Made by a program: the position numbers and the translations under genes. The notes beneath the pieces were generated by a model, which was given only the letters and a program-made list of their open reading frames with translations, was not told the DNA's origin and ran no database searches. 64,000 nucleotides of DNA from a virus (Duplodnaviria; Caudoviricetes), in IMG/VR virus record IMGVR_UViG_3300031669_000010, positions 23,422 through 87,421 of that record; one strand, written 5' to 3'. This document shows, piece after piece, positions 3,699 through 53,243 of this stretch (position 1 is its first letter; the number at the start of each line of letters is the position of its first letter).

Positions 3699-5091
3699 TA
3701 TTATTAAAAGATCTGGGTTGCTAATTTCAAAGGAACATCAGTACGAAGATTGGTATATCAAAGTCAAAGAATTTTTGGAACGGCGAATGAAGTCTTATAA
3801 TTCATCCGCATCTGTAGTCCATGTATTTTATATTGAATCGGAGAAGTTTCTCTTGATACCGAGGAACTTCCCGATTCAACAATACATTTTTGATTATGAT
3901 ATAAAAGATGTAAGGCATGAAGGCCAACCAATTGAAATTGAACATAACATTAAACCCAGAAGTGAAGCACAAGAAAAGGCCATTAATTATATAATGACCA
4001 ATGAAAATGCAACACTACAATTAGCACCTGGAGTTGGTAAAACAGTCATATCAATCTATATGATTGCTGAGAGAAAAAAGAAAGCTCTTATATTTGTTCA
4101 TAGAGACCCACTGGCTAAACAATGGCGAAACAGATTAAAAGAATTTACAAATCTTGAGGATGATGATATTGCTTATCTCAGATCGGCAACATTTGAAACA
4201 GATTTGGATAAGCCAGTAATCATTTCAACAGTTCAAACATTCTTGTCCCTATTAAAAAGAAATCGTAAAGATTTCTTAGTTAAATTAAATGAGGCGGGTG
4301 TGGGTGTATGCGTGGCTGATGAGGTACATACTTCAGTTGGAGCACCAACATTTTCAGAATGTTCGATACACGTTCCTTCAAAATATACATATGGATTAAG
4401 TGCAACTCCATATCGTTATGACGGGAATGGAGATATCATTGAATTTCATCTTGGTGATATATATTCCGATACCGATTTAGAAGGAACGATGGACGCAAAG
4501 GTTGTGGTTTTGATGTTAGATTATCAAATAGATACACCCAACAGATACAAGTATATACGTTGGGGTGGCGATTTCCAAAGAGCACGGTATCTTAATCTAA
4601 TGAAGAAATCAAAACCGTTCACAGAAGCAATGAGGGGTGTGTTGACCCGATTTAAAAATAGGGATCTGATATGTATAGCTGAAAGAATCAAGTTGATCGA
4701 ACAGTTATATGATTGGATGCCGAGTAAAAGTAAAGCTAAATTTTGTGGTTCTGGTGGACTCGAAACTCTTAATTCTAAAATCACATTCGCAACACCTGGT
4801 AAATGTAGAGATGGAATTGATGCAACATGGAAAGATTCAATAATCATGACATCTCCAATCTCAAACATTGAACAATTAACCGGAAGAGTTCTTAGGGATA
4901 GTGAAGGCAAACAAACTCCTATAATAGTTGATATGGTTGATTACGGGTGTAACGATATTGCCAGGACATTTCATAAGCGTCAACAGTTTTATGATGATAA
5001 GAAATGGCCTGTTCAATATTTGATATTTTCAAATGATGGTTTAAAATCAATTGATCGAGAAATTACACACAGAATCCTAAGAGGTGAATAA
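3691..5091 (+). CDS. Superfamily 2 helicase (UvsW/Rad25-like)
   Basis: LAPGVGKT Walker A, ADEVH motif II, GLSATP motif III, EQLTGRVLR motif VI. Confidence 0.88.
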   Translation: MINIIKRSGLLISKEHQYEDWYIKVKEFLERRMKSYNSSASVVHVFYIESEKFLLIPRNFPIQQYIFDYDIKDVRHEGQPIEIEHNIKPRSEAQEKAINYIMTNENATLQLAPGVGKTVISIYMIAERKKKALIFVHRDPLAKQWRNRLKEFTNLEDDDIAYLRSATFETDLDKPVIISTVQTFLSLLKRNRKDFLVKLNEAGVGVCVADEVHTSVGAPTFSECSIHVPSKYTYGLSATPYRYDGNGDIIEFHLGDIYSDTDLEGTMDAKVVVLMLDYQIDTPNRYKYIRWGGDFQRARYLNLMKKSKPFTEAMRGVLTRFKNRDLICIAERIKLIEQLYDWMPSKSKAKFCGSGGLETLNSKITFATPGKCRDGIDATWKDSIIMTSPISNIEQLTGRVLRDSEGKQTPIIVDMVDYGCNDIARTFHKRQQFYDDKKWPVQYLIFSNDGLKSIDREITHRILRGE

Positions 5092-5459
5092 TGAAAATAA
5101 AGACAGACTTTGTAACAAACAGTAGCTCATCCTCATTTGTCGTTATAGGATCCCATATTGATGCAGTGAATATTCCGATTGAAGTATTTCAAAAAATCAA
5201 GGCCAAAGTTCAGGTGACGATTGAAAATATACTTGAAGATCCGTATGAGTATATTGATCCCCTTTTAAGAGGAACGGATTTACAATGGTCTGCCGGATGT
5301 GAATATGACGATGGACTTATGATTGGAATTCCATATACCAGTATGGGTGAGGATGAGACTCTTAAACAATTTAGACAAAGAGTACAAGAAGGAATTAAAC
5401 AATATCTTGGGATAGATACCACACCTGGGCATATCGAAGAATGCTGGATGGACAACTAA
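5091..5459 (+). CDS. MKxKxDFVTNSS-motif protein 1
   Basis: N-terminus MKIKTDFVTNSSSSSF. Confidence 0.75.
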   Translation: MKIKTDFVTNSSSSSFVVIGSHIDAVNIPIEVFQKIKAKVQVTIENILEDPYEYIDPLLRGTDLQWSAGCEYDDGLMIGIPYTSMGEDETLKQFRQRVQEGIKQYLGIDTTPGHIEECWMDN

Positions 5460-5806
5460 TGAAAGTAAAAGCAGACTTCGTAACCAACAGCAGTTCGACT
5501 GCATATATAATTACAAATACCAGTGATAAACATTTAGATCTAGTTGCTTTTGTGAAAGAGAATCCCCAAATAATTGATCAATTTTTAGATGAGTACGATT
5601 GGTATAAAGGGGAAAAAAGGTTTTCACAAAAACATATGATTGAGTCCGCAAAGCAAAACAATAAAACATTTAAACCAGAATATTCTCATTATATTGTCTT
5701 CGGAGATGAAAGTGGGACACTGATCGGTCAGGTGTTTGATTACATGTTAAGAGGCGGAGGGTCATCAAAAAATTTCACATGGAGATTTTGTGAGTATCTG
5801 AGGTAA
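5459..5806 (+). CDS. MKxKxDFVTNSS-motif protein 2
   Basis: TAATG overlap; MKVKADFVTNSSSTAY. Confidence 0.75.
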   Translation: MKVKADFVTNSSSTAYIITNTSDKHLDLVAFVKENPQIIDQFLDEYDWYKGEKRFSQKHMIESAKQNNKTFKPEYSHYIVFGDESGTLIGQVFDYMLRGGGSSKNFTWRFCEYLR

Positions 5807-5811
5807 TTGCT

Positions 5812-6105
5812 ATGAAAATGAAAACAGATTTTGTTACTAATAGTTCATGTGCAAGCTTTGTTATTGAAAAGAAGCATCTAACCAACCTTCAAATAGATTT
5901 AATTTATGAACATCATGAATTTGCTAAACAGTATCACTCACATGCTATTGAATACACACCAGAAAAGAGTGGGTGGGACATCTGCGGAGTTGGAGATACT
6001 ATTAAAGGTACTACGTCTATGGACAACTTTGATATGTTGTGGTTACTTCTTGAGATTGGTATTGATGAAGATCACATAGAATATGAAGGATGTTACGGAG
6101 AATGA
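5812..6105 (+). CDS. MKxKxDFVTNSS-motif protein 3
   Basis: MKMKTDFVTNSSCASF. Confidence 0.75.
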   Translation: MKMKTDFVTNSSCASFVIEKKHLTNLQIDLIYEHHEFAKQYHSHAIEYTPEKSGWDICGVGDTIKGTTSMDNFDMLWLLLEIGIDEDHIEYEGCYGE

Positions 6106-6533
6106 AAATAAAAGCTGATTTTGTCACTAATAGTTCATCTACTGCATATGTTGTTTTTGTACCAAACAATTTCTATGCTGATGAAGAAGAAATTAAAAAA
6201 CTATATAATGATGAATACAAAGAATATGAGACCTTAACAGATGAACAATTATTTAAAAATTTGCCTGACTGTATAGAACTTTTAAAAGAGGGTGACAATG
6301 TTTGGAGTTATGGCTCAGAAGGAATCACTACAAATATATGGAATATGACAGTAGACATCTGCAGACACCACGATTTAGTACTATCGAGCCTTGAAATGAA
6401 TGGTGAAGGCAATAATATCATTCAAGGAGTAAAAGAAGAACAGATTGAAAAAATATTTATGACCAACATTGATATAATGTCAACGTTCAACATGATACAA
6501 AGGAGTCAAAATGTTACTACAAAAACTGAATAA
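6102..6533 (+). CDS. MKxKxDFVTNSS-motif protein 4
   Basis: ATGA overlap, GGAG RBS; MKIKADFVTNSSSTAY. Confidence 0.75.
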   Translation: MKIKADFVTNSSSTAYVVFVPNNFYADEEEIKKLYNDEYKEYETLTDEQLFKNLPDCIELLKEGDNVWSYGSEGITTNIWNMTVDICRHHDLVLSSLEMNGEGNNIIQGVKEEQIEKIFMTNIDIMSTFNMIQRSQNVTTKTE

Positions 6534-6759
6534 TCGAAAAGGATTTACATTGATTGAAGTAATAGTCGTGATAGTTATCCTTGCTATCTTGGCTATGGTT
6601 GTGGTTCCAATGCTTGCTGTAATATATTCCGATTCAGATAGTGAACCGGTTCAAATCATGACACAGAATGAGGAAAAGGCATTAGAGGATAAAGACGAAA
6701 CTCCAAAGCTTCAAGAGCCTGAAGTAGAAAAATCAAAAGGAGATATGAATAAATTATGA
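6511..6759 (+). CDS. Short type IV prepilin/pseudopilin-like protein
   Basis: NRKG|FTLIEVIVVIVILAILAMVVVP class III signal peptide followed by an acidic tail. Confidence 0.82.
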   Translation: MLLQKLNNRKGFTLIEVIVVIVILAILAMVVVPMLAVIYSDSDSEPVQIMTQNEEKALEDKDETPKLQEPEVEKSKGDMNKL

Positions 6760-7781
6760 AGTTTGCATTTATGGCCGACATTCATCTTTCAAAATATGCG
6801 CAAGATAAACTCGAAGATGAATCAAATCTTCCTGAGCGATTACACAGTATTAAAATGGCTTTACACGAAGTAGCAGAGTATTGTATTGGCCATGATATTC
6901 CAACCATCATCATTGGTGGTGATATCCTTCATGGTAAGTCAATCATACATGCAATCGCTCAGGATATAATGCTGGAGTATTTTCAAACATTTGGAAAGAA
7001 AATCAGCTTTGTGGTTATCGATGGAAATCATGATCTGTCTGGCAAGGGAGAAGATGTTGTTTCAGCATTGAGATCTCTTTCGACAGTGCCCGGTGTATCT
7101 TGGGTTCCCCATAATCGAGTAGAGAGGACCAAAGAAGATATATTGTTGGTTCCGTATTCACATAGTGTATCAAAGATTGTAAAAGAAAACAAAGCAAGGA
7201 TTCTGATTTCACACTTCGGCCTTACCGAAGCAATGTTAAGTTCAGGTATGAGTATCGTATCTGATATTAGCGTTTCAGATTTGGTCGGAAAATATGAATT
7301 AGTGTTACTCGGTCATTATCACAAACCTCAAGAAATTATCAAAGAGAACTTCAGGTTGTATTACTCAGGATCATTGATTCAATTAGACTGGGGTGAGAAG
7401 GGCGAGATTAAAAGGTTTCTGGTTGTCGATACAGATTCAATGCAAGTCGATGAAATTCCAATAACTCATTATCGAAAACACATTGAAATTGAATTAACTG
7501 ACTTAAATAAAGATGAAGCATTTAAGGCTGCTAAGGAAGCTACAGATGCAGGACACCATGTTAAAGTTCTTATGAAAGAGAAGGTCGATTTATCAAGAGT
7601 CAAGGGAAACTTTAACATCGTAGACAAAACAGAAACCGATATAACAGACAGGGGTATCACAAGTTCAATGTCTCAGAAGGATCGAATTGATCGCTATATT
7701 GAAATAAAAGAAATTCCTGAACATCTAAGGGATGAATATTCAAAAGAGGCATTAGATATTATTGAAAATTGCGAGGTATGA
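6756..7781 (+). CDS. sbcD: SbcD/Mre11 (T4 gp47-like) nuclease
   Basis: ADIH, GGDILH, GNHD, SHFG, LGHYH metallophosphoesterase motifs; adjacent to SbcC. Confidence 0.9.
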   Translation: MKFAFMADIHLSKYAQDKLEDESNLPERLHSIKMALHEVAEYCIGHDIPTIIIGGDILHGKSIIHAIAQDIMLEYFQTFGKKISFVVIDGNHDLSGKGEDVVSALRSLSTVPGVSWVPHNRVERTKEDILLVPYSHSVSKIVKENKARILISHFGLTEAMLSSGMSIVSDISVSDLVGKYELVLLGHYHKPQEIIKENFRLYYSGSLIQLDWGEKGEIKRFLVVDTDSMQVDEIPITHYRKHIEIELTDLNKDEAFKAAKEATDAGHHVKVLMKEKVDLSRVKGNFNIVDKTETDITDRGITSSMSQKDRIDRYIEIKEIPEHLRDEYSKEALDIIENCEV

Positions 7782-7782
7782 T

Positions 7783-9972
7783 ATGAGGCGAATTGATATT
7801 CAAGAAGTGGGGATGGAGAATTTTGGTCCGTATATCGACCCCATGATTTTAGAATTTAAACCTGACTCCATGGTTTTAATGACTGGTCCAAATGGTATCG
7901 GTAAGACAATGTCCCTTGACGCAATTCCATTTACATTCTATGGTGTTACGAGCAAAGGTGCAAAGGGCGATGATGTGGTAAATAACGTTATCGGCAAAAA
8001 TTGTAAAACATGGGTCAAGTTTGATATTGATAATGACAGATATCTTATTACCCGGTATCAGAAATATACAAAAGCAGGAACCACAGTCATTCTCAACAAA
8101 AACGATGTTGATATTAAAAAGGGTCATAAAGAAGTATTGCCTGAAATTGAAAAATTGATATGTTCAAAGAAATCATTTATGAACACATTGATGTTTGGTC
8201 AGAAGGTAAAAGACTTCTTTACAGATCTACTTGATTCTGATAAAAAGACAATCTTTCGAGAAATATTGGCACTCGAACTTTATCAGGTATATTACAAGAA
8301 GGCTGATGAACGATTGAAAGCTGTCAAGGCTGAACTTGAGGAAATTGAAAAACAGCAAGGAATCAATCATGGGTTGAATGAAGATGCCAATGCTCAAATT
8401 GAGTTGCTACGAGGTCTCCAGAAAAAATGGGAGCAGGAAAAGAAAGAAGCCCTAATCGAACTCAAGAAGTCAATTGATACAAACAAACGTCTATTAGAAA
8501 CTTGGAAAGAGGCATTGAAAGCTCTTAAAAAGGAAGATGTTGATATTGGCGACACATTGAAGGCCTTAGATTATGTTAGATCTGAGTTGAGTACAATCCA
8601 AGAAAGATTTGATGCTGAATTGCAATCAATTGAACAGAGAAAAACTACCAAACTTCTCGAGATACAAAACAAAGCAAATGAAGTATCTAATGAAATTAAG
8701 GCAAGATACAGGATAGAGTATGATCGAATTGATAAAGAGGTAGCGGAGTTAAAAGAATCATCAAACGATCTTGTTAATACAGCTCAGACGAGAAGGCATA
8801 AGGTCGAACTCAAAATTGAAAACATTGAATCTAACATAAGAAATTGGCAGGAACGGGCAAAGGAGATACAAGATAATGTCTTCGAGGCCGGTATTACAGA
8901 GTGCCCCTTATGTCAGCAGGAAGTGTCAGATAAAACTATTGAGTTGTTGGGTGAAAAAGTTGCAGGTTATGATAATGATGTGAGTGAAGCTCTTAAGTTA
9001 GTAATCAAGCAGCAAGAACAGATCAAAGAGATCAACGCCAAAATGATTGCAGGATCAAAGAAACTGACAGGATTCATTGAAGCTCTTCAAGGTACTAAGC
9101 AATTATTAATAAGTAAAGAAATGATAGAAGTGAAAGAACTTGATCTTCGATTAATCCAAGCAACTGAAAAAGTTAATGATTTGGCGGGGAATGAAGCTGG
9201 ACTAAAAGAGATTGCAGTTCAAAAAGCTAAAGATGAACTTGAATCTACAGAGCTGACATTACAGGCGACATATGAGCTTCAGGAAAAAGCTATTGAAAGT
9301 AGAAATGAAGTGCAGGAAAGAGTCGAGAGTTTGAAGCAGGAAATAAGTCGAATGGAAAGTCAGATCAAGGACAAAGAAGAATCCAAGCATGACAAAACCC
9401 AATTGAACTCTTATACGAAACGCTTAATTGATCTTGATAAAGTCCTTCAAGACCTTGAAACAAAGTGGGATGTACTTGATGGTAAGGCACAAAGACTTGA
9501 ATTTTGGAAGTCGGCGTTTTCACCATCAGGAATTCCATCTATGTTGATTGATGAAGCAATTCCATTTATGAATGAGAAGGTTTCATACTATCTCGAAAAA
9601 TTCACAAATGGTCGATATATCGTATCATTTGATACACTAGCAGCAACAAAGGCCGGAGAGTTCAGAGATAAAATTTCGGTCAATGTTGTTGATACATATA
9701 CACGAGCAAATTCAAGGGTTCAATTGTCCGGTGGGCAAACACGAATCATTGATATTGCTACAATCCTAACGCTTGGGGATTTACAATCAAGCATTCAAGA
9801 AGTATCAATAAACATCTTGTTATTTGATGAAATATTTGATAGTCTTGACGAAGAAAACATCGGCTACGTATCTAAAGTATTGTCCCAATTGAAGTTTGGA
9901 AAATCTATTTATTTAATTTCACACAGACATGAGGATCAATTAGAAGTCGATGAAACTCTGACATTGCATTAA
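7783..9972 (+). CDS. sbcC: SbcC/Rad50 (T4 gp46-like) ATPase
   Basis: GPNGIGKT Walker A, coiled coil with CPLC zinc hook, LSGGQ signature, LLFDE Walker B, ISH. Confidence 0.93.
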   Translation: MRRIDIQEVGMENFGPYIDPMILEFKPDSMVLMTGPNGIGKTMSLDAIPFTFYGVTSKGAKGDDVVNNVIGKNCKTWVKFDIDNDRYLITRYQKYTKAGTTVILNKNDVDIKKGHKEVLPEIEKLICSKKSFMNTLMFGQKVKDFFTDLLDSDKKTIFREILALELYQVYYKKADERLKAVKAELEEIEKQQGINHGLNEDANAQIELLRGLQKKWEQEKKEALIELKKSIDTNKRLLETWKEALKALKKEDVDIGDTLKALDYVRSELSTIQERFDAELQSIEQRKTTKLLEIQNKANEVSNEIKARYRIEYDRIDKEVAELKESSNDLVNTAQTRRHKVELKIENIESNIRNWQERAKEIQDNVFEAGITECPLCQQEVSDKTIELLGEKVAGYDNDVSEALKLVIKQQEQIKEINAKMIAGSKKLTGFIEALQGTKQLLISKEMIEVKELDLRLIQATEKVNDLAGNEAGLKEIAVQKAKDELESTELTLQATYELQEKAIESRNEVQERVESLKQEISRMESQIKDKEESKHDKTQLNSYTKRLIDLDKVLQDLETKWDVLDGKAQRLEFWKSAFSPSGIPSMLIDEAIPFMNEKVSYYLEKFTNGRYIVSFDTLAATKAGEFRDKISVNVVDTYTRANSRVQLSGGQTRIIDIATILTLGDLQSSIQEVSINILLFDEIFDSLDEENIGYVSKVLSQLKFGKSIYLISHRHEDQLEVDETLTLH

Positions 9973-9981
9973 GGTGTCGCT

Positions 9982-10362
9982 ATGAAAATAAAAAATGATT
10001 TCGTTACAAATAGTTCTTCCTCATCATTTGTATTTGAAGCATCGGAAAAGATTTTGCGAAAAGATATCGAGAAACATATGAGATTCTATTACGCTGAATG
10101 CTTCCGGTGCTTCACTAACAAAAAGAGTTTAACAGAGTTTACAGAAGCAGGCTACGGAGACTGGGTTTCAAAGGCAAGGGGTGAACCTGCTACATTTTGG
10201 AATATGGATCCATCCTGTTACAGAGAAGCATGTAAGATTTTAAATTGTGGTATGTTTGTCATCTATGCTTCTGTTGACAGGAACGATATGGACAGAGTTG
10301 AGAAGTTCCAGGATCTTGTGGAAGATCGTGGTGGAAGAATAAGAACCAGGAGTGGAGATTAA
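9982..10362 (+). CDS. MKxKxDFVTNSS-motif protein 5
   Basis: MKIKNDFVTNSSSSSF; directly upstream of a radical SAM gene. Confidence 0.75.
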   Translation: MKIKNDFVTNSSSSSFVFEASEKILRKDIEKHMRFYYAECFRCFTNKKSLTEFTEAGYGDWVSKARGEPATFWNMDPSCYREACKILNCGMFVIYASVDRNDMDRVEKFQDLVEDRGGRIRTRSGD

Positions 10363-10363
10363 T

Positions 10364-11410
10364 ATGAGTCAAGTTCGAATCGTAAATTGGCTGCTCACAA
10401 GAAGGTGTAATCTAAAATGTGAGTATTGTGCCATTGTTAAAAACTATAAGGGTAAACCGTCTAGTTATCCGGATATGAGACATTATATCAAACATGAAAT
10501 GCCAACCAATGTAGTCATTAATGCATTAAAGGGATTCAAGATTCATAATCCGAATGTATTTCATATATTCTATGGTGGCGAGCCATTGCTAAGACCTGAT
10601 CTTGCAGACATCATAAATTATTGTAATGAAAATGAAATCTACTATACAGTAATCAGCAACAATACTTCAGGCATTCAAGATCGTATAAGAATGCTATTTG
10701 ACAAAGTTGAATACATTGAGGGGTTCACAAGTTCTGTTGATCCAATCTTCAATGAAATTGGTGCTAAAGAAGACAGAGTCAAAAAGAGTATTGAAGGTCT
10801 GAGGCGATTAAAAGAAATTCAAGCTGCTGGAAAAGTGAAAGATGTTGTTGCTGAAATAACAGTTATGAAACACAATCAAGATCTTTTATACAGACTCATC
10901 CGAGAGTTGAGTGATGAGGAAATATATAGTGATATTACATTCGTTGATATTGCAAAAACTAAGTATTATGATTTTTCAAATGTCTTGGATGAAACATTTT
11001 TAGTTAGACCAACATTTGAACTAGCAGAAGAGTTGATCGACATTATAACTGATAATCGTTTATTGGTTCATATGAAGGACATTCTAATACCTAAGATGTT
11101 CGATACACTTCCATCGAATTTTGACTGTGAGATTGAAAAGGGTTTGCATAACTTGACAATTGATGCTGATGGTTCAATCAGATTGTGTTTAAGAATTAGG
11201 GGTATTGCATCTCCTTCATACAATGTGACTGAACTATTTGATCCAACATATCCTGAACTTATTTCTGCGGATGTGTATAGTGCAATAAAAGGTGATAAGA
11301 AGCACTACTGTTCGTTGTGTAACCATTCCTGTTTAATGATGAGTCAGTATTTTGATACAACTAATGAGGAAGTGGATACACTAATACATTCCGATAAACG
11401 GAGGGAGTAA
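10364..11410 (+). CDS. Radical SAM protein with C-terminal Cys (SPASM/twitch-like) extension
   Basis: CNLKCEYC, YGGEPLLR, C-terminal C...IDADGSIRLC...CSLCNHSC. Confidence 0.88.
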   Translation: MSQVRIVNWLLTRRCNLKCEYCAIVKNYKGKPSSYPDMRHYIKHEMPTNVVINALKGFKIHNPNVFHIFYGGEPLLRPDLADIINYCNENEIYYTVISNNTSGIQDRIRMLFDKVEYIEGFTSSVDPIFNEIGAKEDRVKKSIEGLRRLKEIQAAGKVKDVVAEITVMKHNQDLLYRLIRELSDEEIYSDITFVDIAKTKYYDFSNVLDETFLVRPTFELAEELIDIITDNRLLVHMKDILIPKMFDTLPSNFDCEIEKGLHNLTIDADGSIRLCLRIRGIASPSYNVTELFDPTYPELISADVYSAIKGDKKHYCSLCNHSCLMMSQYFDTTNEEVDTLIHSDKRRE

Positions 11411-11413
11411 ACT

Positions 11414-11755
11414 ATGGCAGACGAACCTACAAAAGATTCTGTAGATAGTGACATAATTGTTAGCGCAATAATGTTCTGGAAAAAGGTATACGAAGAGAAA
11501 GAAGTCATTATCAAATTTATAAAAAAAGATAAGACTAATCGAATCATGAGATGTACCTTAGATTTCAAAAAGATTCCTGTGAAAGATCAACCCAAAAGTG
11601 TCAACATTGAAGTCATTCTAAGATTAATTCAGAAAAACAAAATCATGCATGTTTATGATCTTGATAAAAAAGCATGGCGTTCGGTTCCGTTCGATAGGGT
11701 TGAATATATGGATACAAAGAATCGACGATATTTCACAAAGAAACAACCAGTATAA
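11414..11755 (+). CDS. Small SH3/WYL-like phage protein
   Basis: FIKKDKTNRIMRCTLD...VYDLDKKAWRSVPFDRV pattern. Confidence 0.65.
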   Translation: MADEPTKDSVDSDIIVSAIMFWKKVYEEKEVIIKFIKKDKTNRIMRCTLDFKKIPVKDQPKSVNIEVILRLIQKNKIMHVYDLDKKAWRSVPFDRVEYMDTKNRRYFTKKQPV

Positions 11756-19852: not shown

Positions 19853-19854
19853 GA

Positions 19855-22566
19855 ATGCCTAAAATACTAAATTATGCAGATTTCTGTGAAAACTTAGACG
19901 AAGTGACGTCTCTAAAAACATTTGGTAAGAAAAAGTTTCACCCAGCAGGATTATTCTCTGAGCAAATATTTGGCCCAGTGAGAAATTATACATGTCAGTG
20001 TGGAATTTATCATGGGGTATCAAAGTCCGGTGGTAAATGTGCTGAATGCGGAGTCGCGGTTATCAACAGCGATTCGAGAAGAAAAACATTTGCAAAAATT
20101 GTAATTCCAATCCAAGTTGTGAATCCTCTATTCTACGACTTGCTGGTAGATCTAGCCGGAAGGGGTTTTAAGAAAGCACTTGACGATCTCATGAGGAATG
20201 ACAAAAGTGTTCTATACATAGATAGTGACGAATTTGTTACCACGGATGAAGGTAGTGTTCCACAAGGGGTCCAAAAATGGGAACGAGCTGAAGCGATCAA
20301 AGTTCTTGTTGAAGGATATGCAAATGATATGGTCGAATACGGGGCGCCTGAATGGCAACTCGTATTAGATAACATTAGCAATCTTCTTATAGATACAATT
20401 ATTGTATTGCCCCCTGATCTAAGACCTACATCAAAGAGTTCAGGGGAAACAAAACAATTGATGGACAAAATCAATCGTTACTATGTCCAAATACTCACTA
20501 AGAAGGAGATAATGAGAGAAACAGTTGTAGATGTTCAAAGAGATAAAGCTCTCTATTATACCTACTTCAAACAATTACAAAAAGACGTAAGTGAGTTATA
20601 CACACGAATACTGGAAAAGATGGCAAAAAAAGAGGGGTTGATTAGAGGGAATATTCTCGGTAAGAGAATTGACTTTTCAGGTCGCGCAGTCATCATACCA
20701 GATCCAACGCTTTCATTAACTGAATGTAAGCTTCCATATTTAATGGTACTTGAAATATTCAAACTACCGATCGCCAAACGAATCATTCAACTTGGAAAAT
20801 TCAAGTTACTCAATAAGGCAATTGATTATGTTAATAAGTGTATTGAAGACAGATCTCCAGTTTTATTGAGAGTTTGTGAAGAGGTAACAAACGATCAGTA
20901 TTGTATACTGAACAGACAACCATCTCTTCATAAACTGGGTATGCTTGGTTTTAAGATACTGATTACATTAGATCAAGTAATCAAAATACATCCACTTGCA
21001 TGTCCTCCATTCAATGCAGATTTTGATGGGGATCAAATGGCGGTATATATACCAATTTCAAATGAGGCCAAAGAGGAGATCATCGCTAAGATATTGATAT
21101 CCAAAAATCTTAGTAGTCCTGCAAATGAAAGTCTGACAACAACACCAAGTCAAGATATAATTCTTGGAATTTACTATTTAACATCAATGGAATTCTCAGA
21201 CAGGACAGTTAAATACAAAGGGAAGACAATCCCAATTGGTCAGGCTGAGTTCAATCGACAACTTCCAGAGAATTATCCTTTGGTTGAAGGAACAATTTCA
21301 GAGAAAGAACTCCTATTTGTGCTGAATAATATTAAGAATAGATACACAGAAGATGAAACAGTTGAAGTTCTTGATAATATAAAAAAGACTGGATTCAAAT
21401 TTGCAACTTTGTACGGATCAACTCTGTCACTGAAAGATTTTCCAATTGAGGGAGCGGAAGCGATAAGGGATGATATTTACTCACGTACCGAGTTACGAGA
21501 TCAACTTATTGCATTTTCAGATCCAAGTCTTATTTCAGAGTTGAAAGAAAAATTCAAATACTCATATATGATTGAGTCTGGCGCAAGAGGTAGCTGGGAT
21601 CAGGTAAAACAACTTATTCTATCGAGAGGATTCATTTCAAATTTCGATGGAGAGATTTTACCTCATCCAATTAAAAACTCTTTGGTTGATGGTTTGACAC
21701 AAAAAGAGTTTTTCTATTCAACATATGGTTGCCGAAAGGGACTTCTTGATGTTGCATTGAATACAGGAACGTCTGGGTATCTATCAAGAAAGTTAATTTT
21801 CACATGCGCCAATTTACAAATTGACGAAGATGTTGATGACTGTGGTACAGAAGATTTATTAGAGGTTGATGTTAAAACAAAACGAAAGGCCAGAATGTTA
21901 CTTAACAGATGGACTCTCAATGAAGAAGACAACACCCTTTATAAAATTACACATGAAAACTATAAGGACATCATTGGTAAGATGATTTATATACGAAGCC
22001 CAATTTTATGTAAAGATCCAAAAATCTGTAAAAAGTGCTACGGTGATTTATATAAAAATTTAAATAGCCGCTTCATTGGTATTCTCGCAGCTCAAACATT
22101 GGGTGAGCGTGGAACCCAATTGGTTTTAAGAACTTTCCATACTTCAGGATCAGCAGTTATTAAGGGGCAGAATAGCGAAGATAATGCTAGTTCATCCATG
22201 AAACAGAGAGATATTATTGGAGATCTTGCATCCGTTGCTGAACTTTTGCACAAATTTAAAGGCAAGACATATACAATGATAGTCGATGAATTATTTGATG
22301 TGTATGATAAAGAAATCCATCATGTTCATTTTGAATGTGTTGTCGCTCAATTGATGTGGAAGGACCATATGAAATGGCGTCTATTAGAAGATCGTGAAAA
22401 GATAGAACCGAATTATTATAGTATTCAATCTGTACCGAATCAAGAGAGTTGGATACTGGCAATGGCATTCTCTAATCCAAAGAGATCAATATTACAAGGT
22501 ATTCTGTATGAAGGTAGATATTCGGGCGTCATGGATAAAATCCTTAAAGGAGAAAAAATCACATGA
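19855..22566 (+). CDS. rpoC: Phage multisubunit RNA polymerase beta'-like subunit
   Basis: GLFSEQIFGP, CQCG..CAECG zinc site, GKRIDFSGRAVI, LNRQPSLH, NADFDGDQMAV catalytic loop, TSGYLSRKL, GTQLVLRTFH. Confidence 0.96.
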   Translation: MPKILNYADFCENLDEVTSLKTFGKKKFHPAGLFSEQIFGPVRNYTCQCGIYHGVSKSGGKCAECGVAVINSDSRRKTFAKIVIPIQVVNPLFYDLLVDLAGRGFKKALDDLMRNDKSVLYIDSDEFVTTDEGSVPQGVQKWERAEAIKVLVEGYANDMVEYGAPEWQLVLDNISNLLIDTIIVLPPDLRPTSKSSGETKQLMDKINRYYVQILTKKEIMRETVVDVQRDKALYYTYFKQLQKDVSELYTRILEKMAKKEGLIRGNILGKRIDFSGRAVIIPDPTLSLTECKLPYLMVLEIFKLPIAKRIIQLGKFKLLNKAIDYVNKCIEDRSPVLLRVCEEVTNDQYCILNRQPSLHKLGMLGFKILITLDQVIKIHPLACPPFNADFDGDQMAVYIPISNEAKEEIIAKILISKNLSSPANESLTTTPSQDIILGIYYLTSMEFSDRTVKYKGKTIPIGQAEFNRQLPENYPLVEGTISEKELLFVLNNIKNRYTEDETVEVLDNIKKTGFKFATLYGSTLSLKDFPIEGAEAIRDDIYSRTELRDQLIAFSDPSLISELKEKFKYSYMIESGARGSWDQVKQLILSRGFISNFDGEILPHPIKNSLVDGLTQKEFFYSTYGCRKGLLDVALNTGTSGYLSRKLIFTCANLQIDEDVDDCGTEDLLEVDVKTKRKARMLLNRWTLNEEDNTLYKITHENYKDIIGKMIYIRSPILCKDPKICKKCYGDLYKNLNSRFIGILAAQTLGERGTQLVLRTFHTSGSAVIKGQNSEDNASSSMKQRDIIGDLASVAELLHKFKGKTYTMIVDELFDVYDKEIHHVHFECVVAQLMWKDHMKWRLLEDREKIEPNYYSIQSVPNQESWILAMAFSNPKRSILQGILYEGRYSGVMDKILKGEKIT

Positions 22567-22748
22567 GAGACCCAGCCCGAATTGAACGAATACTGGGTTT
22601 AATCAGGAAGGTCTGGTATGATGCTCCAGACCTTCGCCTGACCCAACTTATTATGAATGAACTGAGAATGCATAGCGATCCTTATTATATTGAGGATGAC
22701 GTTCTCGAAAAAGCATTGAAAGCATACTGCAAAGATAGGAGGATTTAA
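22563..22748 (+). CDS. Small conserved phage protein
   Basis: MRDPARIERILGLIRKVW...PDLRLTQL signature; inserted between the RNAP genes. Confidence 0.7.
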   Translation: MRDPARIERILGLIRKVWYDAPDLRLTQLIMNELRMHSDPYYIEDDVLEKALKAYCKDRRI

Positions 22749-22751
22749 AAC

Positions 22752-25700
22752 TTGAAAATAATTAATCCAATAGCTGCAATACAAGACGAAGATAATAACA
22801 TCTTCACAATCAGACAAAGAGACTATGACAATATTTTACCTATCGTGCAAGAAATAGTTAAACCTGTTGAGGAAATTGGTTTCACAATCAATGATATTAG
22901 TTTGAAAGATTCACGTTTTTCATCGGGAGAGCTTGCCAAGACTCTTAAACAAACATTGGCTATAAAATTACAAAAAGGAACTTCTGAAATTGATCTTAGT
23001 ATTTTCATTCCCAAGCTTGTTGATGGAAACTATATTTATATCAACGGACGAAGAAAAATTCCTTTACTACAGCTTTTTGACATTCCGATTGTAACAAGAG
23101 GAGAAAGCATAAAGCTTCGCACAAATGTAGCAACCATAATGGTATTTTCAGATAAAGAAGCCCCATTCATTCGGATTAGCTTCTTGGGTAAAAAGATACC
23201 ACTTTCTTTGATACTGCTTGCGTATCATGGAATAGAACTTTGTAAAATCAAATATGATTTAGATGGTGATATTGACGAAGAGAGCGAAAACCTTTTTGAA
23301 ATACTCAGATATGATTTGAGAAGTTATATTGAAGAATCAGTTGGATATGCTCCTGATGATTTTTTATTAGAACTCGGAAGGATGTATTCAAGATATAATG
23401 CAAAATCAAAGGGGGAAGATGTACTATATGCACTTGATTTAATTCCAAAAGTTGATATAATCACAGCACGATTTATGACTTACCCAACAATCTTGGAAGA
23501 GATTTGTGAAATATTAAAGACAGGTGAAGTCGATGATATGGAGTACACAAACAAACGGGTGAGATGTTTTGAGTATATGGTAATTGCAAGAATTTCAAAG
23601 ATCATATTCGATTTGTGTTTTTCAAATCGAACTGCAAGACAACCGAAGTTCAATATCAACTCAACACAAATCTTATCAGATTGTAATGTTTCAGATATTG
23701 TTCAATTTGATTTCTCAATCAACCCAATTGAGGAATTGACAAAACTATCAAGAATAAGTCTTCTTGGTCCCGGCGGATTTAAAAGGGAAAACATTCCCAA
23801 GCATTTGAGAGATATTTGCCCAAGTATGTTTGGCCGTCTATGTCCTGTTGATACTCCAGATAGAGATAACTGTGGGGTTCTTCAAAATGTTGTCCCGAAT
23901 GTACATCTTGATCAAAATTTGAAATTTGAAGCAGAGGTTCAGGATAAATTTCCTCTCTCAATTCCTGTTTCAATGACTCCATTCTTAAAGCATGACGACC
24001 AAACAAGATTACAAATGGCTGCATCCCAAATGAGGCAGGCGATCATGCTGAGAGAATTTGATGTTCCTCTTATCAGTTCAGGGTCAGAAGGACTATATAC
24101 ACCACACACTCAATTTGTCAAGATGGCTAAAAAACCTGGAGAGGTTGTTCATATTGACAAAGAGTATATTATAGTGGTATATGATGATAAAGATGCTGAC
24201 ATATTTGATATTCGTTATAGAAAAATTTATGTTGAACACATGGATTTCATGAATATCTATGTTAAACCAGGAGACCGGTTTAGTGCAGGAGACATTTTAG
24301 CAGAAAGTAATTTCTGTAAAAATGGAAAAATTAACATTGGCAAAAATCTTCTGACTGGTGTTATGGTTTATTATGGTAACAACTATGAGGATGGAATCGT
24401 TATTTCAGATAGACTTGTCAATGAGGACACCCTAACGTCAGTACACTATAAGGATTTATCATTCACAGTAACCCCAGATAAAGTTCTTCTATCATTAAAG
24501 GATGGTGAATATAAACCACTACCAGATGAACTTGAAACAATTGAAAAGGGTGATACATATGCCATTTTGCAAAAGCTTAACTCTGACGAACAATATTCGG
24601 TATTTGCCGAGAAGGTACTGTTAGAAACCCGGAAAAAGTATATCGTTTCCGAAGTTAATTTATATGGTAACTCTTGGAACGAAGAGGTGCCTGAATATAA
24701 AGAGTGGCTTGAATCCAAACTCTCGAAGCAACAAGACAAAGAGAAGTATCTTCAAAAAGTCCTGAAAGATGTTATGTCGAAAGACGAAGCAATGAAACTT
24801 ATCAGGGAAAAGAGTCTTGACAAATTCTCATTCACCGGTAAGTATAAAGAGAAGCGTGAGAGAATTAACGGATTATATGTTGAAATGTATGGAGTTCATT
24901 TCAGGAGAGTTCAGGTTGGTGATAAATTAGCTAATAGGCATGGCAATAAAGGAGTCATATCTAGAATTGTTCCTCATGATAAAATGCCACAGCTACCTGA
25001 TGGACGCCACATGGATATTTGCATCAATCCACTTGGTATCATATCGAGAATGAATATTGGTCAATTATATGAAATGCATTTGGCCATGGCGGTTGATGCA
25101 TTGAAGCAAAACATATTAAAGATGTTAGATAAAGATGTTGAGCAGAGCGAGATAAAAGAATACCTGCTGGGGTTCATAAAGATTGTTGATCGGACAGAGG
25201 ACAATTGGTATTATACACAATTCTCCGAACAGATGCCGGAACAACTATCATTGGACTTCATCAAAAATCTTACAATCATCCAAGCTCCATTTCAATCTTG
25301 CAAATTACAGCAGGTTGATGAAGCAATGCAATATGTTGGAAGCGATTTTAAATTTCCAATATATGATCCATTGTCAAAAGTTAAATTGGCAAATCCTGTT
25401 GCAGCTGGTTTCATTTACTTCTTCAGGATGGTTCATATTGCAGAGGAAAAACTTGCTGCAAGAGGGATTGGTGCATATGCAAGACGAACCCTCCAACCAT
25501 TAGGTGGTCGAAAGAATAAGGGTGGTCAGAGATGTGGTGAAATGGAAACTGCGTGTTTGATTGGGCATGATGCTCCAATTAATCTACATGAGTTTCTTAC
25601 AACCAAGTCCGATTGTATTGATTTGAAAAATAATTACATTCGCAATTTCATCGATCCAAATTTAACAGATGAAAGCAAAGAATTAGATACAACACCCGAG

Positions 25701-25754
25701 TCAGTTAAACTGCTTAATTCATATCTAATAGTGATAGGAGTTGATCAAAGATGA
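22752..25754 (+). CDS. rpoB: Phage multisubunit RNA polymerase beta-like subunit
   Basis: GRLCPVDTPD..NCG, HDDQTRLQMAASQMRQA, NYEDG, GDKLANRHGNKG, GGQRCGEME; TTG start. Confidence 0.95.
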   Translation: MKIINPIAAIQDEDNNIFTIRQRDYDNILPIVQEIVKPVEEIGFTINDISLKDSRFSSGELAKTLKQTLAIKLQKGTSEIDLSIFIPKLVDGNYIYINGRRKIPLLQLFDIPIVTRGESIKLRTNVATIMVFSDKEAPFIRISFLGKKIPLSLILLAYHGIELCKIKYDLDGDIDEESENLFEILRYDLRSYIEESVGYAPDDFLLELGRMYSRYNAKSKGEDVLYALDLIPKVDIITARFMTYPTILEEICEILKTGEVDDMEYTNKRVRCFEYMVIARISKIIFDLCFSNRTARQPKFNINSTQILSDCNVSDIVQFDFSINPIEELTKLSRISLLGPGGFKRENIPKHLRDICPSMFGRLCPVDTPDRDNCGVLQNVVPNVHLDQNLKFEAEVQDKFPLSIPVSMTPFLKHDDQTRLQMAASQMRQAIMLREFDVPLISSGSEGLYTPHTQFVKMAKKPGEVVHIDKEYIIVVYDDKDADIFDIRYRKIYVEHMDFMNIYVKPGDRFSAGDILAESNFCKNGKINIGKNLLTGVMVYYGNNYEDGIVISDRLVNEDTLTSVHYKDLSFTVTPDKVLLSLKDGEYKPLPDELETIEKGDTYAILQKLNSDEQYSVFAEKVLLETRKKYIVSEVNLYGNSWNEEVPEYKEWLESKLSKQQDKEKYLQKVLKDVMSKDEAMKLIREKSLDKFSFTGKYKEKRERINGLYVEMYGVHFRRVQVGDKLANRHGNKGVISRIVPHDKMPQLPDGRHMDICINPLGIISRMNIGQLYEMHLAMAVDALKQNILKMLDKDVEQSEIKEYLLGFIKIVDRTEDNWYYTQFSEQMPEQLSLDFIKNLTIIQAPFQSCKLQQVDEAMQYVGSDFKFPIYDPLSKVKLANPVAAGFIYFFRMVHIAEEKLAARGIGAYARRTLQPLGGRKNKGGQRCGEMETACLIGHDAPINLHEFLTTKSDCIDLKNNYIRNFIDPNLTDESKELDTTPESVKLLNSYLIVIGVDQR

Positions 25755-47719: not shown

Positions 47720-47768
47720 ACATGCAAAAATGTTCTCAGCGATAGTTTCCTTAAATTCTGAAATAGAA

Positions 47769-48560: not shown

Positions 48561-48597
48561 TTTCTTAATCTCCTTTCATTCACATTCTAATTAATAA

Positions 48598-49083: not shown

Positions 49084-49098
49084 TTGTAACTATCCTCC

Positions 49099-49578: not shown

Positions 49579-49590
49579 TTTTTACCTCAA

Positions 49591-50322: not shown

Positions 50323-50341
50323 GTTAGTATCCTCCTAGTTG

Positions 50342-50866: not shown

Positions 50867-50884
50867 TCTATTACCGGCGATCAA

Positions 50885-50900
50885 TTTTATATTTTGTTCT
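50885..50900 (-). promoter_or_regulatory. Putative late-type promoter
   Basis: AGAACAAAATATAAAA on the minus strand. Confidence 0.6.
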
Positions 50901-50931
50901 AAACTATGTGGCACATTGTTCATAGTTTTAT

Positions 50932-50953
50932 CTATATATATTAATAAATGAAG
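50932..50953 (+). promoter_or_regulatory. Putative early-type promoter
   Basis: CTATATATATTAATAAATGAAG. Confidence 0.7.
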
Positions 50954-50996
50954 ATAGAGTATTTGCTAACTAATTTTTTTATGAGGGAGAGTAAAC

Positions 50997-51410
50997 ATGT
51001 CGAAAAAGAGTAGCGGTTTTATTTTTAGTTGGCCAATGATATTGGCCCTCATCGTTGGATACAATTTTCTTTTTGACGACGATGACGAAAAGGATAACAA
51101 GACTATATCAGTCACAGTGGAGGAGGGTGAGATTATCAAAGAAAAACAACCATCTATAGATGAAAGGATAAGTAAGATAGTAGAGAAGGGAACAACTATA
51201 ATTGAAGATGGCGTGTCTGTCCTTGAAGAAAAAATAGAGGATCTGGACAAGGCATTGACAGAAACAGAAAAGGAGGAACCAAAAGTTGACAAGACACAAG
51301 ATATCAAACCGGAAGAAGAAGAAACTATTGAAACCAAAAACGAAGTGGAAACTATCAAACCTTTGGAAAAGAAAGAAAAAGCCAAAGGATTCGGAATGAA
51401 AAAGCTATGA
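50997..51410 (+). CDS. Membrane-anchored acidic protein
   Basis: N-terminal hydrophobic helix, charged tail. Confidence 0.7.
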   Translation: MSKKSSGFIFSWPMILALIVGYNFLFDDDDEKDNKTISVTVEEGEIIKEKQPSIDERISKIVEKGTTIIEDGVSVLEEKIEDLDKALTETEKEEPKVDKTQDIKPEEEETIETKNEVETIKPLEKKEKAKGFGMKKL

Positions 51411-52390
51411 TGTTTAATAAAGCGTTTAGAAACCAAGACTATGAAATTTACTTCAATACAGTATCAGGCGTTGAAGTCATGCAGGGAAGAGATGGAAAAG
51501 AAGATCCATTTGCGTTGGATCTCCCCTCACTTCTTGATGTTGGTATTATGGGTCACTGTAAGCATAAGTGTCGATTCTGTTATCAAGGCCATGAAAATGA
51601 ACCGAATATGAAGCTTGAAGATTTCAAATCTATTATAGATCAAGTAAAGCATCATACGAATCAAGTTGCTTTAGGTGGTCGTGGTGATCCCAATCATCAT
51701 GAAGATTTTGAGGAAATCGTTAAATATGCTCGATCAAATGGTGTTGTGCCAAACTACACAACCAGTGGAATTGACCTCACACCTGAGCATATTGAAATAT
51801 CAAAACTGTGTGGTGCGGTTGCAGTTAGTGACTATTATCAAAGTTACACATATGATGCATTGAATAAATTTATGAACGCAGGGATAAAAACCAACATTCA
51901 TCTTATTTTTCACTATGGTTCATATGGTTCAGTCATGAAAATATTATACGGGTATGATCCTTGGGTGGGTCTTGTTGATCTTGATCGACTGAATGCTGTA
52001 ATCTTTCTATTATTTAAACCAGCAGGAGCAGGGGAAAAGCTTCCATGGAAACCTCTTGAAGATGAACTGGATAACTTCTCCAACCTCGTATTCAACAACA
52101 AAGCAAAGTTCAAAATTGGCATGGATAGTTGTTTGATCAATCATGTTTTGAAAAGGATTGAACCAAATGAGATTCAGCGTATGTCAATTGACTCATGTGA
52201 GGCGGCAAGGATGTCAGGATACATTACACCTGATATGAGGTTCATGCCTTGTAGTTTCGCCGACAAAGAGAAATGGGCTATTCCTATAACCAAGAAAAAG
52301 GACATTGAATACATATGGAATCGCTCAAGACCATTCAAACAATTCAGACAAATGCTTAAAAAAAATCAATGTTGCCCACTGGGCCTATGA
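51407..52390 (+). CDS. Radical SAM protein with twitch-like C-terminus
   Basis: CKHKCRFC, VALGGRGDP, NYTTSG, CEAARMSGYITPDMRFMPC. Confidence 0.9.
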   Translation: MMFNKAFRNQDYEIYFNTVSGVEVMQGRDGKEDPFALDLPSLLDVGIMGHCKHKCRFCYQGHENEPNMKLEDFKSIIDQVKHHTNQVALGGRGDPNHHEDFEEIVKYARSNGVVPNYTTSGIDLTPEHIEISKLCGAVAVSDYYQSYTYDALNKFMNAGIKTNIHLIFHYGSYGSVMKILYGYDPWVGLVDLDRLNAVIFLLFKPAGAGEKLPWKPLEDELDNFSNLVFNNKAKFKIGMDSCLINHVLKRIEPNEIQRMSIDSCEAARMSGYITPDMRFMPCSFADKEKWAIPITKKKDIEYIWNRSRPFKQFRQMLKKNQCCPLGL

Positions 52391-52402
52391 AAAGGAGATA
52401 CT

Positions 52403-52756
52403 ATGGAATCTATGAAATTAACAAAACAGAATTATGTTGGATTGGCAATGATGGTTGGTATTCTGGTAGTCGGAATCATCGGAGGATATGGTAAACAACA
52501 ATGGGCTGAAAACATCTATACGTTTCTATCCGTTGTTCTGATGATCATCTTCATGGGAGCGGCGTTGTTTAAAAGTAAATTCAAACCCATCAAACAATTC
52601 ATGGCCGTTTATTTTATACATGTGCTATTCTGTGTATCACTTGGATGGTGGTGGGTTATGCTATGGTGGATTCTTACTTGTGTTTCAGTTGGAGTTTCAA
52701 TGAGCAATTACCTAGACGCCATGAAAGGAGCTGTGGAAAGTGAAGCTAAAGGCTGA
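52403..52756 (+). CDS. Multi-pass small membrane protein
   Basis: 3-4 hydrophobic segments; AAGGAG RBS. Confidence 0.7.
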   Translation: MESMKLTKQNYVGLAMMVGILVVGIIGGYGKQQWAENIYTFLSVVLMIIFMGAALFKSKFKPIKQFMAVYFIHVLFCVSLGWWWVMLWWILTCVSVGVSMSNYLDAMKGAVESEAKG

Positions 52757-53243
52757 TTTTGTAACTAACTCAAGCTCTTCGTCATTTATTGTAATTTGGC
52801 CATGTAGAATTAAAAGTCAAGACGATGTTTCTAAATATATACATCGTCTTGACTTTCAGCCTATTATTTTTAGAGATGCAGTTAAACAGAAGGCAAAAAA
52901 AGTCGGTCCTTCCTGTATCAAAAAAATGGCAACTGAACTAAAATGTGGTTGTGTTCGTGGATTAATTGACCACTGGGAATATGAAAAACAATTCTGCAAA
53001 AGAGAGGGTATAGAACAACTAAATCTCTATAAAAATCGAGCATGGCGAGATCAGTTCCATGAAGAATATGAAATTCATAGTTCTGCTCAGGCAAAGGAAA
53101 TGGCGGAGAAGTTTATAAACGAAAGCGGGGATGGTTATGTCTACTATTTTAGCTACGGTGATGAAGACGGTGGAATCTTTTCTGCACTGGAACACGAAAA
53201 CAACTGGGGAGGACTTCCAAAGATCCACATTAGCCAACACTAG
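52740..53243 (+). CDS. MKxKxDFVTNSS-motif protein 6
   Basis: GTG start; MKLKADFVTNSSSSSF. Confidence 0.75.
   Translation: MKLKADFVTNSSSSSFIVIWPCRIKSQDDVSKYIHRLDFQPIIFRDAVKQKAKKVGPSCIKKMATELKCGCVRGLIDHWEYEKQFCKREGIEQLNLYKNRAWRDQFHEEYEIHSSAQAKEMAEKFINESGDGYVYYFSYGDEDGGIFSALEHENNWGGLPKIHISQH

Follow-up and report, generated by a model that had tools for sequence, protein, structure and literature searches.

We describe a short N-terminal protein tail that is encoded six times in a 64,000-nucleotide stretch of viral DNA (IMG/VR record IMGVR_UViG_3300031669_000010, positions 23,422 to 87,421; the whole stretch is called the window below), and its link to one family of radical S-adenosylmethionine (radical SAM) enzymes. 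The six small tagged proteins all start with M-K-x-K-x-D-F-V-T-N-S-S, followed by [S/C]-x-[S/A]-[F/Y], and the window also encodes two radical SAM enzymes, rSAM-A (10364-11410) and rSAM-B (51407-52390). Comparative gene content makes it very probable that the tail and the rSAM-B family are functionally linked, since the association is held across two domains of hosts and phages, at an enzyme identity of 34%, and in both directions of ascertainment. We read the link as one of enzyme and substrate, with a probability of roughly 0.6: rSAM-B recognizes whole proteins by their exposed tail, which it probably modifies.

Linkage of the tail to the rSAM-B family

The decisive and independent evidence for the link is provided by bacterial loci. 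One genome per species was scanned (185,579 species) for the pattern K-x-D-F-[VI]-T-N-S-S-S, which yielded 54 loci, and 41 of them hold a strictly ordered, overlapping four-gene operon with the tagged protein in third place. The first gene encodes an Avs2-like STAND NTPase of 800-1,000 aa, the second a small protein of ~134 aa (here protein X), the third the tagged protein, also of ~134 aa, and the fourth a radical SAM/SPASM enzyme of ~350 aa. In the first protein the NTPase region matches the PADLOC Avs2 models (E 2e-32) and the N-terminus is a lipase-like alpha/beta-hydrolase. The fourth is homologous to rSAM-B over its full length, the part ahead of the cluster motif included (34% identity, E 1e-49), and is no homologue of rSAM-A. 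The hosts span at least 12 bacterial phyla overall and include Bacteroidales, Clostridia, Tissierella praeacuta DSM 18095, Desulfobacterota, Sulfurimonas, Planctomycetia, Omnitrophota, Nitrospirota, Anaerolineae, Chloroflexota, Spirochaetia and Campylobacterota, among others. Several operons adjoin genes resembling type I restriction-modification, as judged by the sizes and N-terminal sequences of the open reading frames (ORFs) and not by a family search. The remaining loci of the scan include phage-like tagged arrays binned into metagenome-assembled genomes (MAGs).

The same arrangement is found in a cultured organism. The conjugative plasmid pAt of Agrobacterium tumefaciens Ach5 (NZ_CP011248.1) carries a four-gene cassette (positions 2562-7014 of our locus L252) that encodes a SMEK-domain protein, WP_038496259, the tagged protein WP_051489734, whose N-terminus is MKLKMDFVSNSSSTSF, and the radical SAM enzyme WP_038496256. 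The large protein of this cassette has a SMEK-domain N-terminus instead of the hydrolase. The cassette offers a cultured, genetically tractable entry point to the system, and its type of enzyme also occurs on Rhizobium and Rhodobacter plasmids.

In phages, the linkage was measured from both sides. At least 115 IMG/VR stretches were fetched with a strict DNA pattern for the tail, and the phage tail counts given here rest on those listed; many of these stretches carry two to five tandem copies of the tail. Among the matches listed, an rSAM-B homologue (44-70% identity) is present in 49 loci and an rSAM-A homologue in 12, and rSAM-B is the window gene found most often. A tagged gene starts within 500 nt downstream of rSAM-B, on the same strand, in 44 of the 49 loci, and lies within 60 nt of it in 25, of which 18 are directly downstream and have a body (the part of the protein past the tail) of the type called cluster 0 below. 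Cluster 0 is the commonest body directly after rSAM-B, and at least eight different body clusters adjoin the enzyme in these loci. The reverse collection comprised the best 80 of 308 rSAM-B-fetched loci in IMG/VR, 76 of them evaluable, and a tagged gene was found within 500 nt downstream of the enzyme in 43.

As the first-pass annotation of the window, made from the sequence and its ORFs, had suggested, a profile of the tail was built and its co-occurrence with radical SAM genes was determined. Among long contigs, rSAM-B is present in 10 of 11 with the tail versus 1 of 7 without it (Fisher p = 0.0025, for contigs that were selected non-randomly and share ancestry). The single rSAM-B gene among the seven tail-less contigs is cut by the contig end. 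Eight long contigs had been picked for an rSAM-A gene without a tagged neighbour; one of these has the tail, and it also has rSAM-B. There is one rSAM-B match each in 9 of 10 long tail-bearing contigs, which, set against the six tagged genes of the window, fits one enzyme with many clients.

The case of rSAM-A is different. A tagged gene lies directly upstream of it in 10 of the 12 tail-fetched rSAM-A loci, and in 25 of 59 loci fetched with the enzyme (about 28 with three variant or overlapping copies included). In about half of the rSAM-A loci (L253-L315) a Rad50-like gene directly precedes the enzyme, without a tagged gene separating the two. The enzyme is thus conserved next to the Mre11/Rad50 module (6756-9972 in the window), a tagged gene often being inserted beside it, and its function may relate to this recombination module. 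We had considered rSAM-A as a dedicated partner of the tail and downgraded it, given the absence of a tagged gene from about half of its loci; it is probably not such a partner. The tie between tag and radical SAM genes drawn in the first-pass annotation therefore stands for rSAM-B, on adjacency seen both ways, the bacterial operon and co-variation, and is weak for rSAM-A, which is often tag-less and whose place beside a tagged gene in the window may be positional. Its term 'protein-maturation system' captures only part of the picture, as it leaves out the bacterial setting in a defence operon with an Avs2-like STAND NTPase.

The tagged proteins and their tail

All six tagged genes lie on the + strand of the window. 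The first four form an array. Tagged protein 1 (5091-5459; 122 aa; isoelectric point, pI, 4.4; body cluster 2) begins with MKIKTDFVTNSSSSSF, and its start overlaps the stop of a helicase gene (3658-5091). Tagged protein 2 (5459-5806; 115 aa from ATG 5459; cluster 5) begins with MKVKADFVTNSSSTAY and overlaps the preceding stop by 1 nt, whereas tagged protein 4 (6102-6533; 143 aa; pI 4.5; cluster 1), which begins with MKIKADFVTNSSSTAY, overlaps its predecessor's stop by 4 nt. Between these two stands tagged protein 3 (5812-6105; 97 aa; pI 4.7; cluster 6), with the N-terminus MKMKTDFVTNSSCASF and a Cys at tail position 13. As the genes of 5091-6533 overlap or nearly abut, the array is likely to be translationally coupled. 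The other two copies are placed beside the radical SAM genes just as had been noted at first: tagged protein 5 (9982-10362; 126 aa; cluster 1; N-terminus MKIKNDFVTNSSSSSF) directly precedes rSAM-A, which starts at 10364 or at GTG 10352, and tagged protein 6 (52740-53243; 167 aa; GTG start; cluster 0; N-terminus MKLKADFVTNSSSSSF) is the second gene past rSAM-B, with a small membrane protein of 117 aa (52403-52756, +) in between. The membrane gene is missing in most related loci, where the tagged gene begins 1-25 nt past rSAM-B.

The tail is confined to these six places. A six-frame scan of the 64 kb with the core D-[FY]-[VIL]-[TS]-[ND]-S-S returned only six sites, each exactly five residues past a start codon. 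In the protein alignment M1, K2, K4, D6, F7, V8, T9, N10, S11 and S12 are invariant, and no position after the tail is conserved to 90% or more, in keeping with the dissimilarity seen by eye at first. In the DNA alignment, synonymous sites vary among the copies (GAC/GAT, TTT/TTC, GTA/GTT/GTC, and AGT/AGC/TCA/TCT for Ser), which points to selection on the tail peptide rather than to a DNA repeat or a recent duplication; a DNA repeat or recombination site, which we had considered, is ruled out by these differences.

The tail is held in the same way outside the window. A relaxed form of the motif was found in 245 proteins from ~1 Mb of tail-fetched loci, and in 236 of them this motif occupies exactly residues 7-12; the median length of the proteins is 131 aa. 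A profile made from 104 N-terminal fragments of 36 residues was run against 1.84 billion representatives and matched 9,539 clusters (50% identity) at E<=1e-3, the match lying at residues 1-35 in nearly all of the best 150. No published description of the tail was found in a literature search ('TNSSS', 'FVTNSS'), no Pfam, NCBIfam or PADLOC model matches the tagged proteins, and an ESM Atlas search returned only unnamed viral clusters. The sole PHROG match among them is a weak one of tagged protein 6 to phrog_7397, of unknown function (E 1.2e-6). Tagged proteins 1 and 6 each have their own full-length, unannotated metagenomic family, which for tagged protein 1 numbers ~100 full-length homologues.

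For the bodies, the first 20 residues of 230 proteins were cut off and the remainders clustered by BLAST. This gave 25 clusters, five of which hold the six proteins of the window. A few clusters are related by hhalign, weakly, such as cluster 5 (the body of tagged protein 2) with clusters 7 and 0 (66% and 28% probability); most pairs show no detectable similarity. Phage cluster 4, which is absent from the window, is a distant relative of the body found in the bacterial tagged protein (hhalign 82%). Acidic bodies prevail, with a median pI of 4.9 and 79% below pI 6; three of the window's six lie at 4.4-4.7.

Some natural proteins depart from the simple layout. Three two-domain proteins (P0153, P0155 and P0156) bear the tail twice, and in P0153 the internal copy keeps D-F-V-T-N-S-S-S without M-K-x-K; internal copies of this kind suggest that the tail segment can also sit in a linker. 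P0156 and P0157 have the variant G-F-V-S-N-S-S-S. Four tail-bearing proteins of ~500 aa from Bacillota MAGs (recorded as Firmicutes, Bacillota or Eubacteriales; L221:7905-9440, L231:892-2409, L233:7983-9524 and L249:7992-9440) start with MKIKVDFVTNSSSEVF and continue into an SMC-like coiled coil. They had been considered as enzyme fusions, which is ruled out by their coiled-coil nature. A search for Rosetta-stone fusions of the tail to a radical SAM domain among longer proteins gave two weak matches only.

AlphaFold2 models of two tagged proteins place the most conserved part outside the predicted fold. In the model of tagged protein 1 (pLDDT, the predicted local distance difference test score, 80.6) residues 1-3 and 8-11 are below 50, and in that of tagged protein 6 (pLDDT 90.3) residues 1-10 are below 50 and 11-167 are confident, so that the conserved segment is modelled largely as a free tail. 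The S-x-S-F-[IV]-[IV] segment forms strand 1 in both, and the order of secondary-structure elements after it differs between them. Neither model has a fold match in the PDB: the best Foldseek E values are 0.15 (tagged protein 1) and 0.54 (tagged protein 6) against a threshold of E<=0.001, and the best VIA-align 2 Z scores, 4.7 and 4.9, are within background. No solved relatives of the tagged proteins were found by sequence. A flavodoxin-like or NrdI-like reading, based on a strand followed by a Ser-rich loop, was dropped because the predicted topology is not beta-alpha-beta.

These data bear on a structural explanation, in which the tail would be strand 1 and the following loop of one divergent superfamily, for example a phosphate- or metal-binding site together with a recurrent acidic G-D-E-x-G-like loop, and its position beside radical SAM genes would go back to inherited synteny. 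The weak relations between bodies (hhalign 66-78% for two pairs, besides the bacterial body and cluster 4) are in its favour, as are the modelled strand 1 and the strand with an acidic loop that comes late in the sequence of several bodies. On the other hand, most cluster pairs have no profile similarity, residues 1-10 lie outside the fold in both models, the topologies of the bodies differ, and an operon that is fixed in at least 12 bacterial phyla, with an enzyme at 34% identity to that of the phage, is too distant for passive synteny. We consider this explanation quite improbable. Its simplest form, a motif that is merely the first strand of a common fold, had been named at the outset as what would overturn the idea of a tag, and the two models, with residues 1-10 outside confident and differing bodies, argue against it.

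A tag shared by unrelated bodies is also familiar from phage heads. The internal proteins of T4 are encoded by clustered genes, and their products have only a short N-terminal capsid-targeting tag in common; jumbo phages with a phiKZ-like polymerase pack many proteins into the head. The tail might likewise send cargo into the prohead and be removed there by the head protease, the radical SAM genes being unrelated to it. The T4 pattern is indeed similar (genes in tandem, unrelated bodies and a shared N-terminal tag of 10-16 residues), and the window comes from a jumbo phage whose multisubunit RNA polymerase is phiKZ-like. However, the same tail occurs in chromosomal and plasmid STAND operons without capsid genes, and the link to rSAM-B would be left unexplained. 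The head proteases of T4 and phiKZ cut after Glu, and the tail logo has no Glu at positions 1-18. Virion targeting is thus a very improbable role for the tail.

The enzymes and the proposed modification

Both enzymes, recognized as radical SAM proteins in the first reading of the window, score well above the cut-off of the Pfam Radical_SAM model (PF04055; 29.5 bits), with 51.6 bits for rSAM-A and 43.0 bits for rSAM-B. rSAM-B (+ strand, 327 aa), the one whose family co-occurs with the tail, has the CX3CX2C motif (CKHKCRFC) at C51/C55/C58 and further invariant cysteines, C242, C264, C282 and C323, which are twitch/SPASM-like in the alignment. rSAM-A (+ strand, 348 aa, or 352 aa from GTG 10352) follows a Rad50-like gene and has its CX3CX2C motif (CNLKCEYC) at residues 15-22, plus a C-terminal Cys cluster. 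The three cluster-motif cysteines are invariant in both family alignments. Comparison of rSAM-A with an rSAM-B homologue detected no similarity beyond the superfamily core. For the Pfam SPASM model (PF13186, cut-off 21.5 bits) rSAM-B scores 20.7 and rSAM-A 15.3 bits, and the bacterial rSAM-B homologues exceed the SPASM cut-offs (PF13186, 23.8 bits; TIGR04085, 34.6 and 32.4 versus 27).

The relatives of rSAM-B are maturases. Neither window enzyme comes near any NCBIfam equivalog, and no score for membership of a maturase family reaches its curated cut-off; among the NCBIfam models, rSAM-B and its bacterial homologues most resemble WgkB, MftC, PqqE, NirJ and a tungsten-cofactor maturase, which mature peptides, proteins or cofactors. 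The nearest solved chain to rSAM-B is SkfB, a peptide thioether synthase (E 3e-4, weak), and those nearest to rSAM-A are MoaA and ChlB (E ~1e-5 to 1e-4, also weak). rSAM-B also matches phrog_7293 (E 4e-28). Distant homologues of it (28-30% identity, full length) are present in Klebsiella phage KP15 (KP15_135) and its relatives and in Vibrio phage D479. This rSAM-B-like enzyme of T4-like Enterobacteriaceae phages, found in KP15 and 167 other cultured phage records, has an unusual spacing of the first two cluster cysteines. No tagged gene is visible among the genes downstream of the KP15 enzyme; pattern matches over whole records were no more frequent than in the control, the pattern being degenerate.

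Four features make us prefer the enzyme-substrate reading: an exposed tail, invariant residues in it that are polar and chemically addressable, a single enzyme for many clients, and relatives of the enzyme that modify peptides or proteins. The phage would encode rSAM-B and at least six small, mostly acidic clients with different folded bodies. The first 10-12 residues of each would be free, with S-x-S-F-[IV]-[IV] as the first strand of the body, and the tail would serve as docking and modification site in one, bound extended in the barrel of the enzyme. A 5'-deoxyadenosyl radical could then alter one of the invariant residues (K2 or K4, D6, F7, T9, N10 or S11-S13) by cross-linking, oxidation or epimerization, possibly followed by processing of the tail, and a single enzyme would in this way mature many unrelated whole proteins. 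As to the chemistry, known formylglycine or thioether formation is unlikely, since the tail lacks the motif of the anaerobic sulfatase-maturating enzyme (anSME) and, in most members, any Cys. By analogy with SuiB and WgkB, a Lys-aromatic cross-link from K2 or K4 to F7 can be speculated on, as can chemistry at N10 or S11-S13.

Several observations weigh against this reading. No tagged gene was found within 4 kb in 32 of the 76 rSAM-B-fetched loci; in many tag-less loci the next genes encode, in turn, a small membrane protein and a secreted protein with a signal peptide, an order resembling the window genes at 52403 and 53785 (CreA-like). Five rSAM-B contigs of 30-52 kb have no tagged gene at all, though they are only 9-17% complete. 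Most tagged genes, including the array 5091-6533, are not beside any radical SAM gene, and there is none within 8 kb of the four Bacillota coiled-coil tagged genes. The phage loci are related by descent, so that shared synteny inflates the phage counts. Neither enzyme has a PqqD-like match (the recognition element, RRE, of peptide maturases) at E<=1, and the residues before the cluster motif, ~45 in rSAM-B and 14 in rSAM-A, leave no room for a classical RRE leader-binding domain. The low pLDDT of the invariant tail may partly reflect a lack of covariation signal and not true disorder. Gene linkage alone cannot separate a substrate from a binding partner.

This last point leads to an adaptor model, in which the tail docks the protein on rSAM-B, and in bacteria on the STAND complex, without being modified, and the bodies recruit targets, regulate the enzyme or plug it. 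The phage copies could then be competitive decoys that occupy the radical SAM enzyme of host immunity. The gene-linkage data fit this model as well, and a constant tail on many fast-evolving bodies is what would be expected of a docking peptide on varied binding modules. Bodies this acidic are typical of mimics of protein or DNA, and in the KpAvs2 operon the STAND protein is physically bound by a small accessory protein (PMC11564622). Yet the phages have an rSAM-B of their own, for which decoys aimed solely at the host enzyme would have no use, and polar T9, N10, S11 and S12, invariant across the 9,539 clusters, look more like a reaction site than a docking strand. We regard the adaptor model as unlikely, though it is the main rival of the enzyme-substrate reading.

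Bacteria carry the enzyme-client pair as the last two genes of an Avs2-like STAND operon in defence islands, and this setting suggests that the pair most likely works in phage-host conflict. It is plausible that the diversified acidic clients of the phages are anti-defence effectors or decoys. A more far-reaching proposal is that the tail is a covalent handle, on whose invariant K/D/F/T-N-S-S-S segment rSAM-B would place a new radical-derived modification or cross-link. The enzyme-client pair would arm or license the Avs2-like STAND receptor of bacteria, and jumbo phages would have adopted the pair and expanded the acidic clients as anti-defence proteins or decoys that rely on the modification, the post-translational code being common to both sides; as a whole, this is doubtful. 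If the enzyme-substrate reading is true, a single N-terminal tag of 16 residues would allow a radical SAM system to mature many unrelated whole proteins. The system would provide a testable function for the unexplained radical SAM accessory genes in Avs2-type immune operons and a biochemical theme for a large block of jumbo-phage genes without known function, and it could yield a portable tag-enzyme pair for protein engineering.

Phage setting and comparison with known systems

The window DNA occurs in soil and marine-sediment metagenomes. Its genes include a large terminase, baseplate and sheath proteins, topoisomerase II, a helicase and Mre11/Rad50-like proteins, and two large ORFs (19855-25754, +) match the PHROGs of the split beta and beta' subunits of a phiKZ-type multisubunit RNA polymerase, which suggests that it is part of a jumbo phage of ~300 kb. 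Genomes of ~300 kb are also indicated by the related contigs, which are 30-270 kb long and rated 9-79% complete. No close cultured relative was found, as a megablast search of 5000-11500 against 50,697 phage records gave zero matches. Homologues of the bacterial STAND protein and of protein X are absent from the ORFs of the window and of the 115 phage loci.

Three neighbouring genes are worth recording. Right after the tagged array, an ORF of 82 aa (6511-6759, +) starts with a methylation motif like that of type IV pilins (Pfam N_methyl, 39.2 bits, cut-off 21.2), which is unusual in a phage gene. Just past rSAM-A, the ORF 11414-11755 (+) has a weak WYL_2/Sm-like match (25.4 bits, cut-off 26.7) and is kept together with rSAM-A in 11 related loci. 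The last gene of the + strand island that holds rSAM-B encodes a CreA-family secreted protein (53785-54282, +; Pfam CreA, 88.1 bits). Related phages (L129-L145) have a secreted protein of ~160 aa in this position after rSAM-B, whether a tagged gene is present or not; the CreA match was made for the window protein alone, and the proteins of the related phages were matched to it by position.

Among known systems, anSME/AtsB is a SPASM radical SAM enzyme with many whole proteins as substrates, in each of which it modifies a Ser or Cys within a short motif. The tail differs from its sulfatase targets in that C/S-x-P/A-x-R is absent, there being no Pro or Arg after the Ser run, and the clients have no sulfatase domains. 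The tail differs from the T4 capsid-targeting sequence in lacking a Glu cleavage site (L/I-x-E), in being found in operons of bacteria and in its link to an enzyme gene. With the SPASM/twitch maturases of ribosomally synthesized and post-translationally modified peptides (RiPPs), such as SkfB, SuiB, WgkB, MftC and PqqE, rSAM-B shares the CX3CX2C core and a putative auxiliary Cys-rich domain, and there too one enzyme recognizes its substrates by a short conserved peptide. In contrast to RiPP precursors, the window clients are folded proteins of 97-167 aa (up to ~230 aa elsewhere), with predicted bodies of pLDDT 80.6 and 90.3 in the two models. Conservation is seen at their very N-terminus, a segment that may itself serve as the core, and no RRE domain is present.

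The closest published parallel is the KpAvs2 operon of Klebsiella pneumoniae, which consists of the Avs2 STAND NTPase, the radical SAM protein Avap1 and Avap2, assigned to DUF6375 by HHpred (Nat Commun 2024, PMC11564622). Avap1 is required for defence against some phages by a function that is not known, and Avap2 binds the STAND protein (PMC11564622); our literature search on Avap1 found no follow-up work. As in KpAvs2, the pair of the bacterial relatives sits with an Avs2-type STAND NTPase and a small accessory protein, Avap1 and Avap2 having been compared by description only. DUF6375 (PF19902) had no HMMER match in 26 X proteins, 26 tagged proteins or five operon-bearing genomes, the published assignment having used the more sensitive HHpred. 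KpAvs2 has three genes and an Mrr nuclease effector, whereas the operon here has four genes and an alpha/beta-hydrolase or SMEK N-terminal domain; the window, for its part, is phage DNA without a STAND gene. The KpAvs2 paper makes no mention of the tail (PMC11564622).

The HXS antiphage system provides a second parallel, as its effector HxsA is a whole protein matured by the radical SAM enzymes HxsB and HxsC (Nat Commun 2026, PMC13128918). The features shared with HXS are a whole protein rather than a small peptide as substrate, a short Ser-containing motif, N-terminal processing and a phage-host conflict. HXS relies on His-Xaa-Ser repeats, whereas the tail has no His, and the enzymes are different as well, the HxsC model scoring 15.6 bits against a cut-off of 267.9. 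HXS also has one periplasmic effector, in bacteria only, and not many clients. The roles of radical SAM proteins in HXS and KpAvs2 antiphage defence are precedents for our reading of the tail and rSAM-B. Radical SAM maturation directed by a short motif is known already; what would be new here is the unusual class of clients and their setting in an immune conflict.

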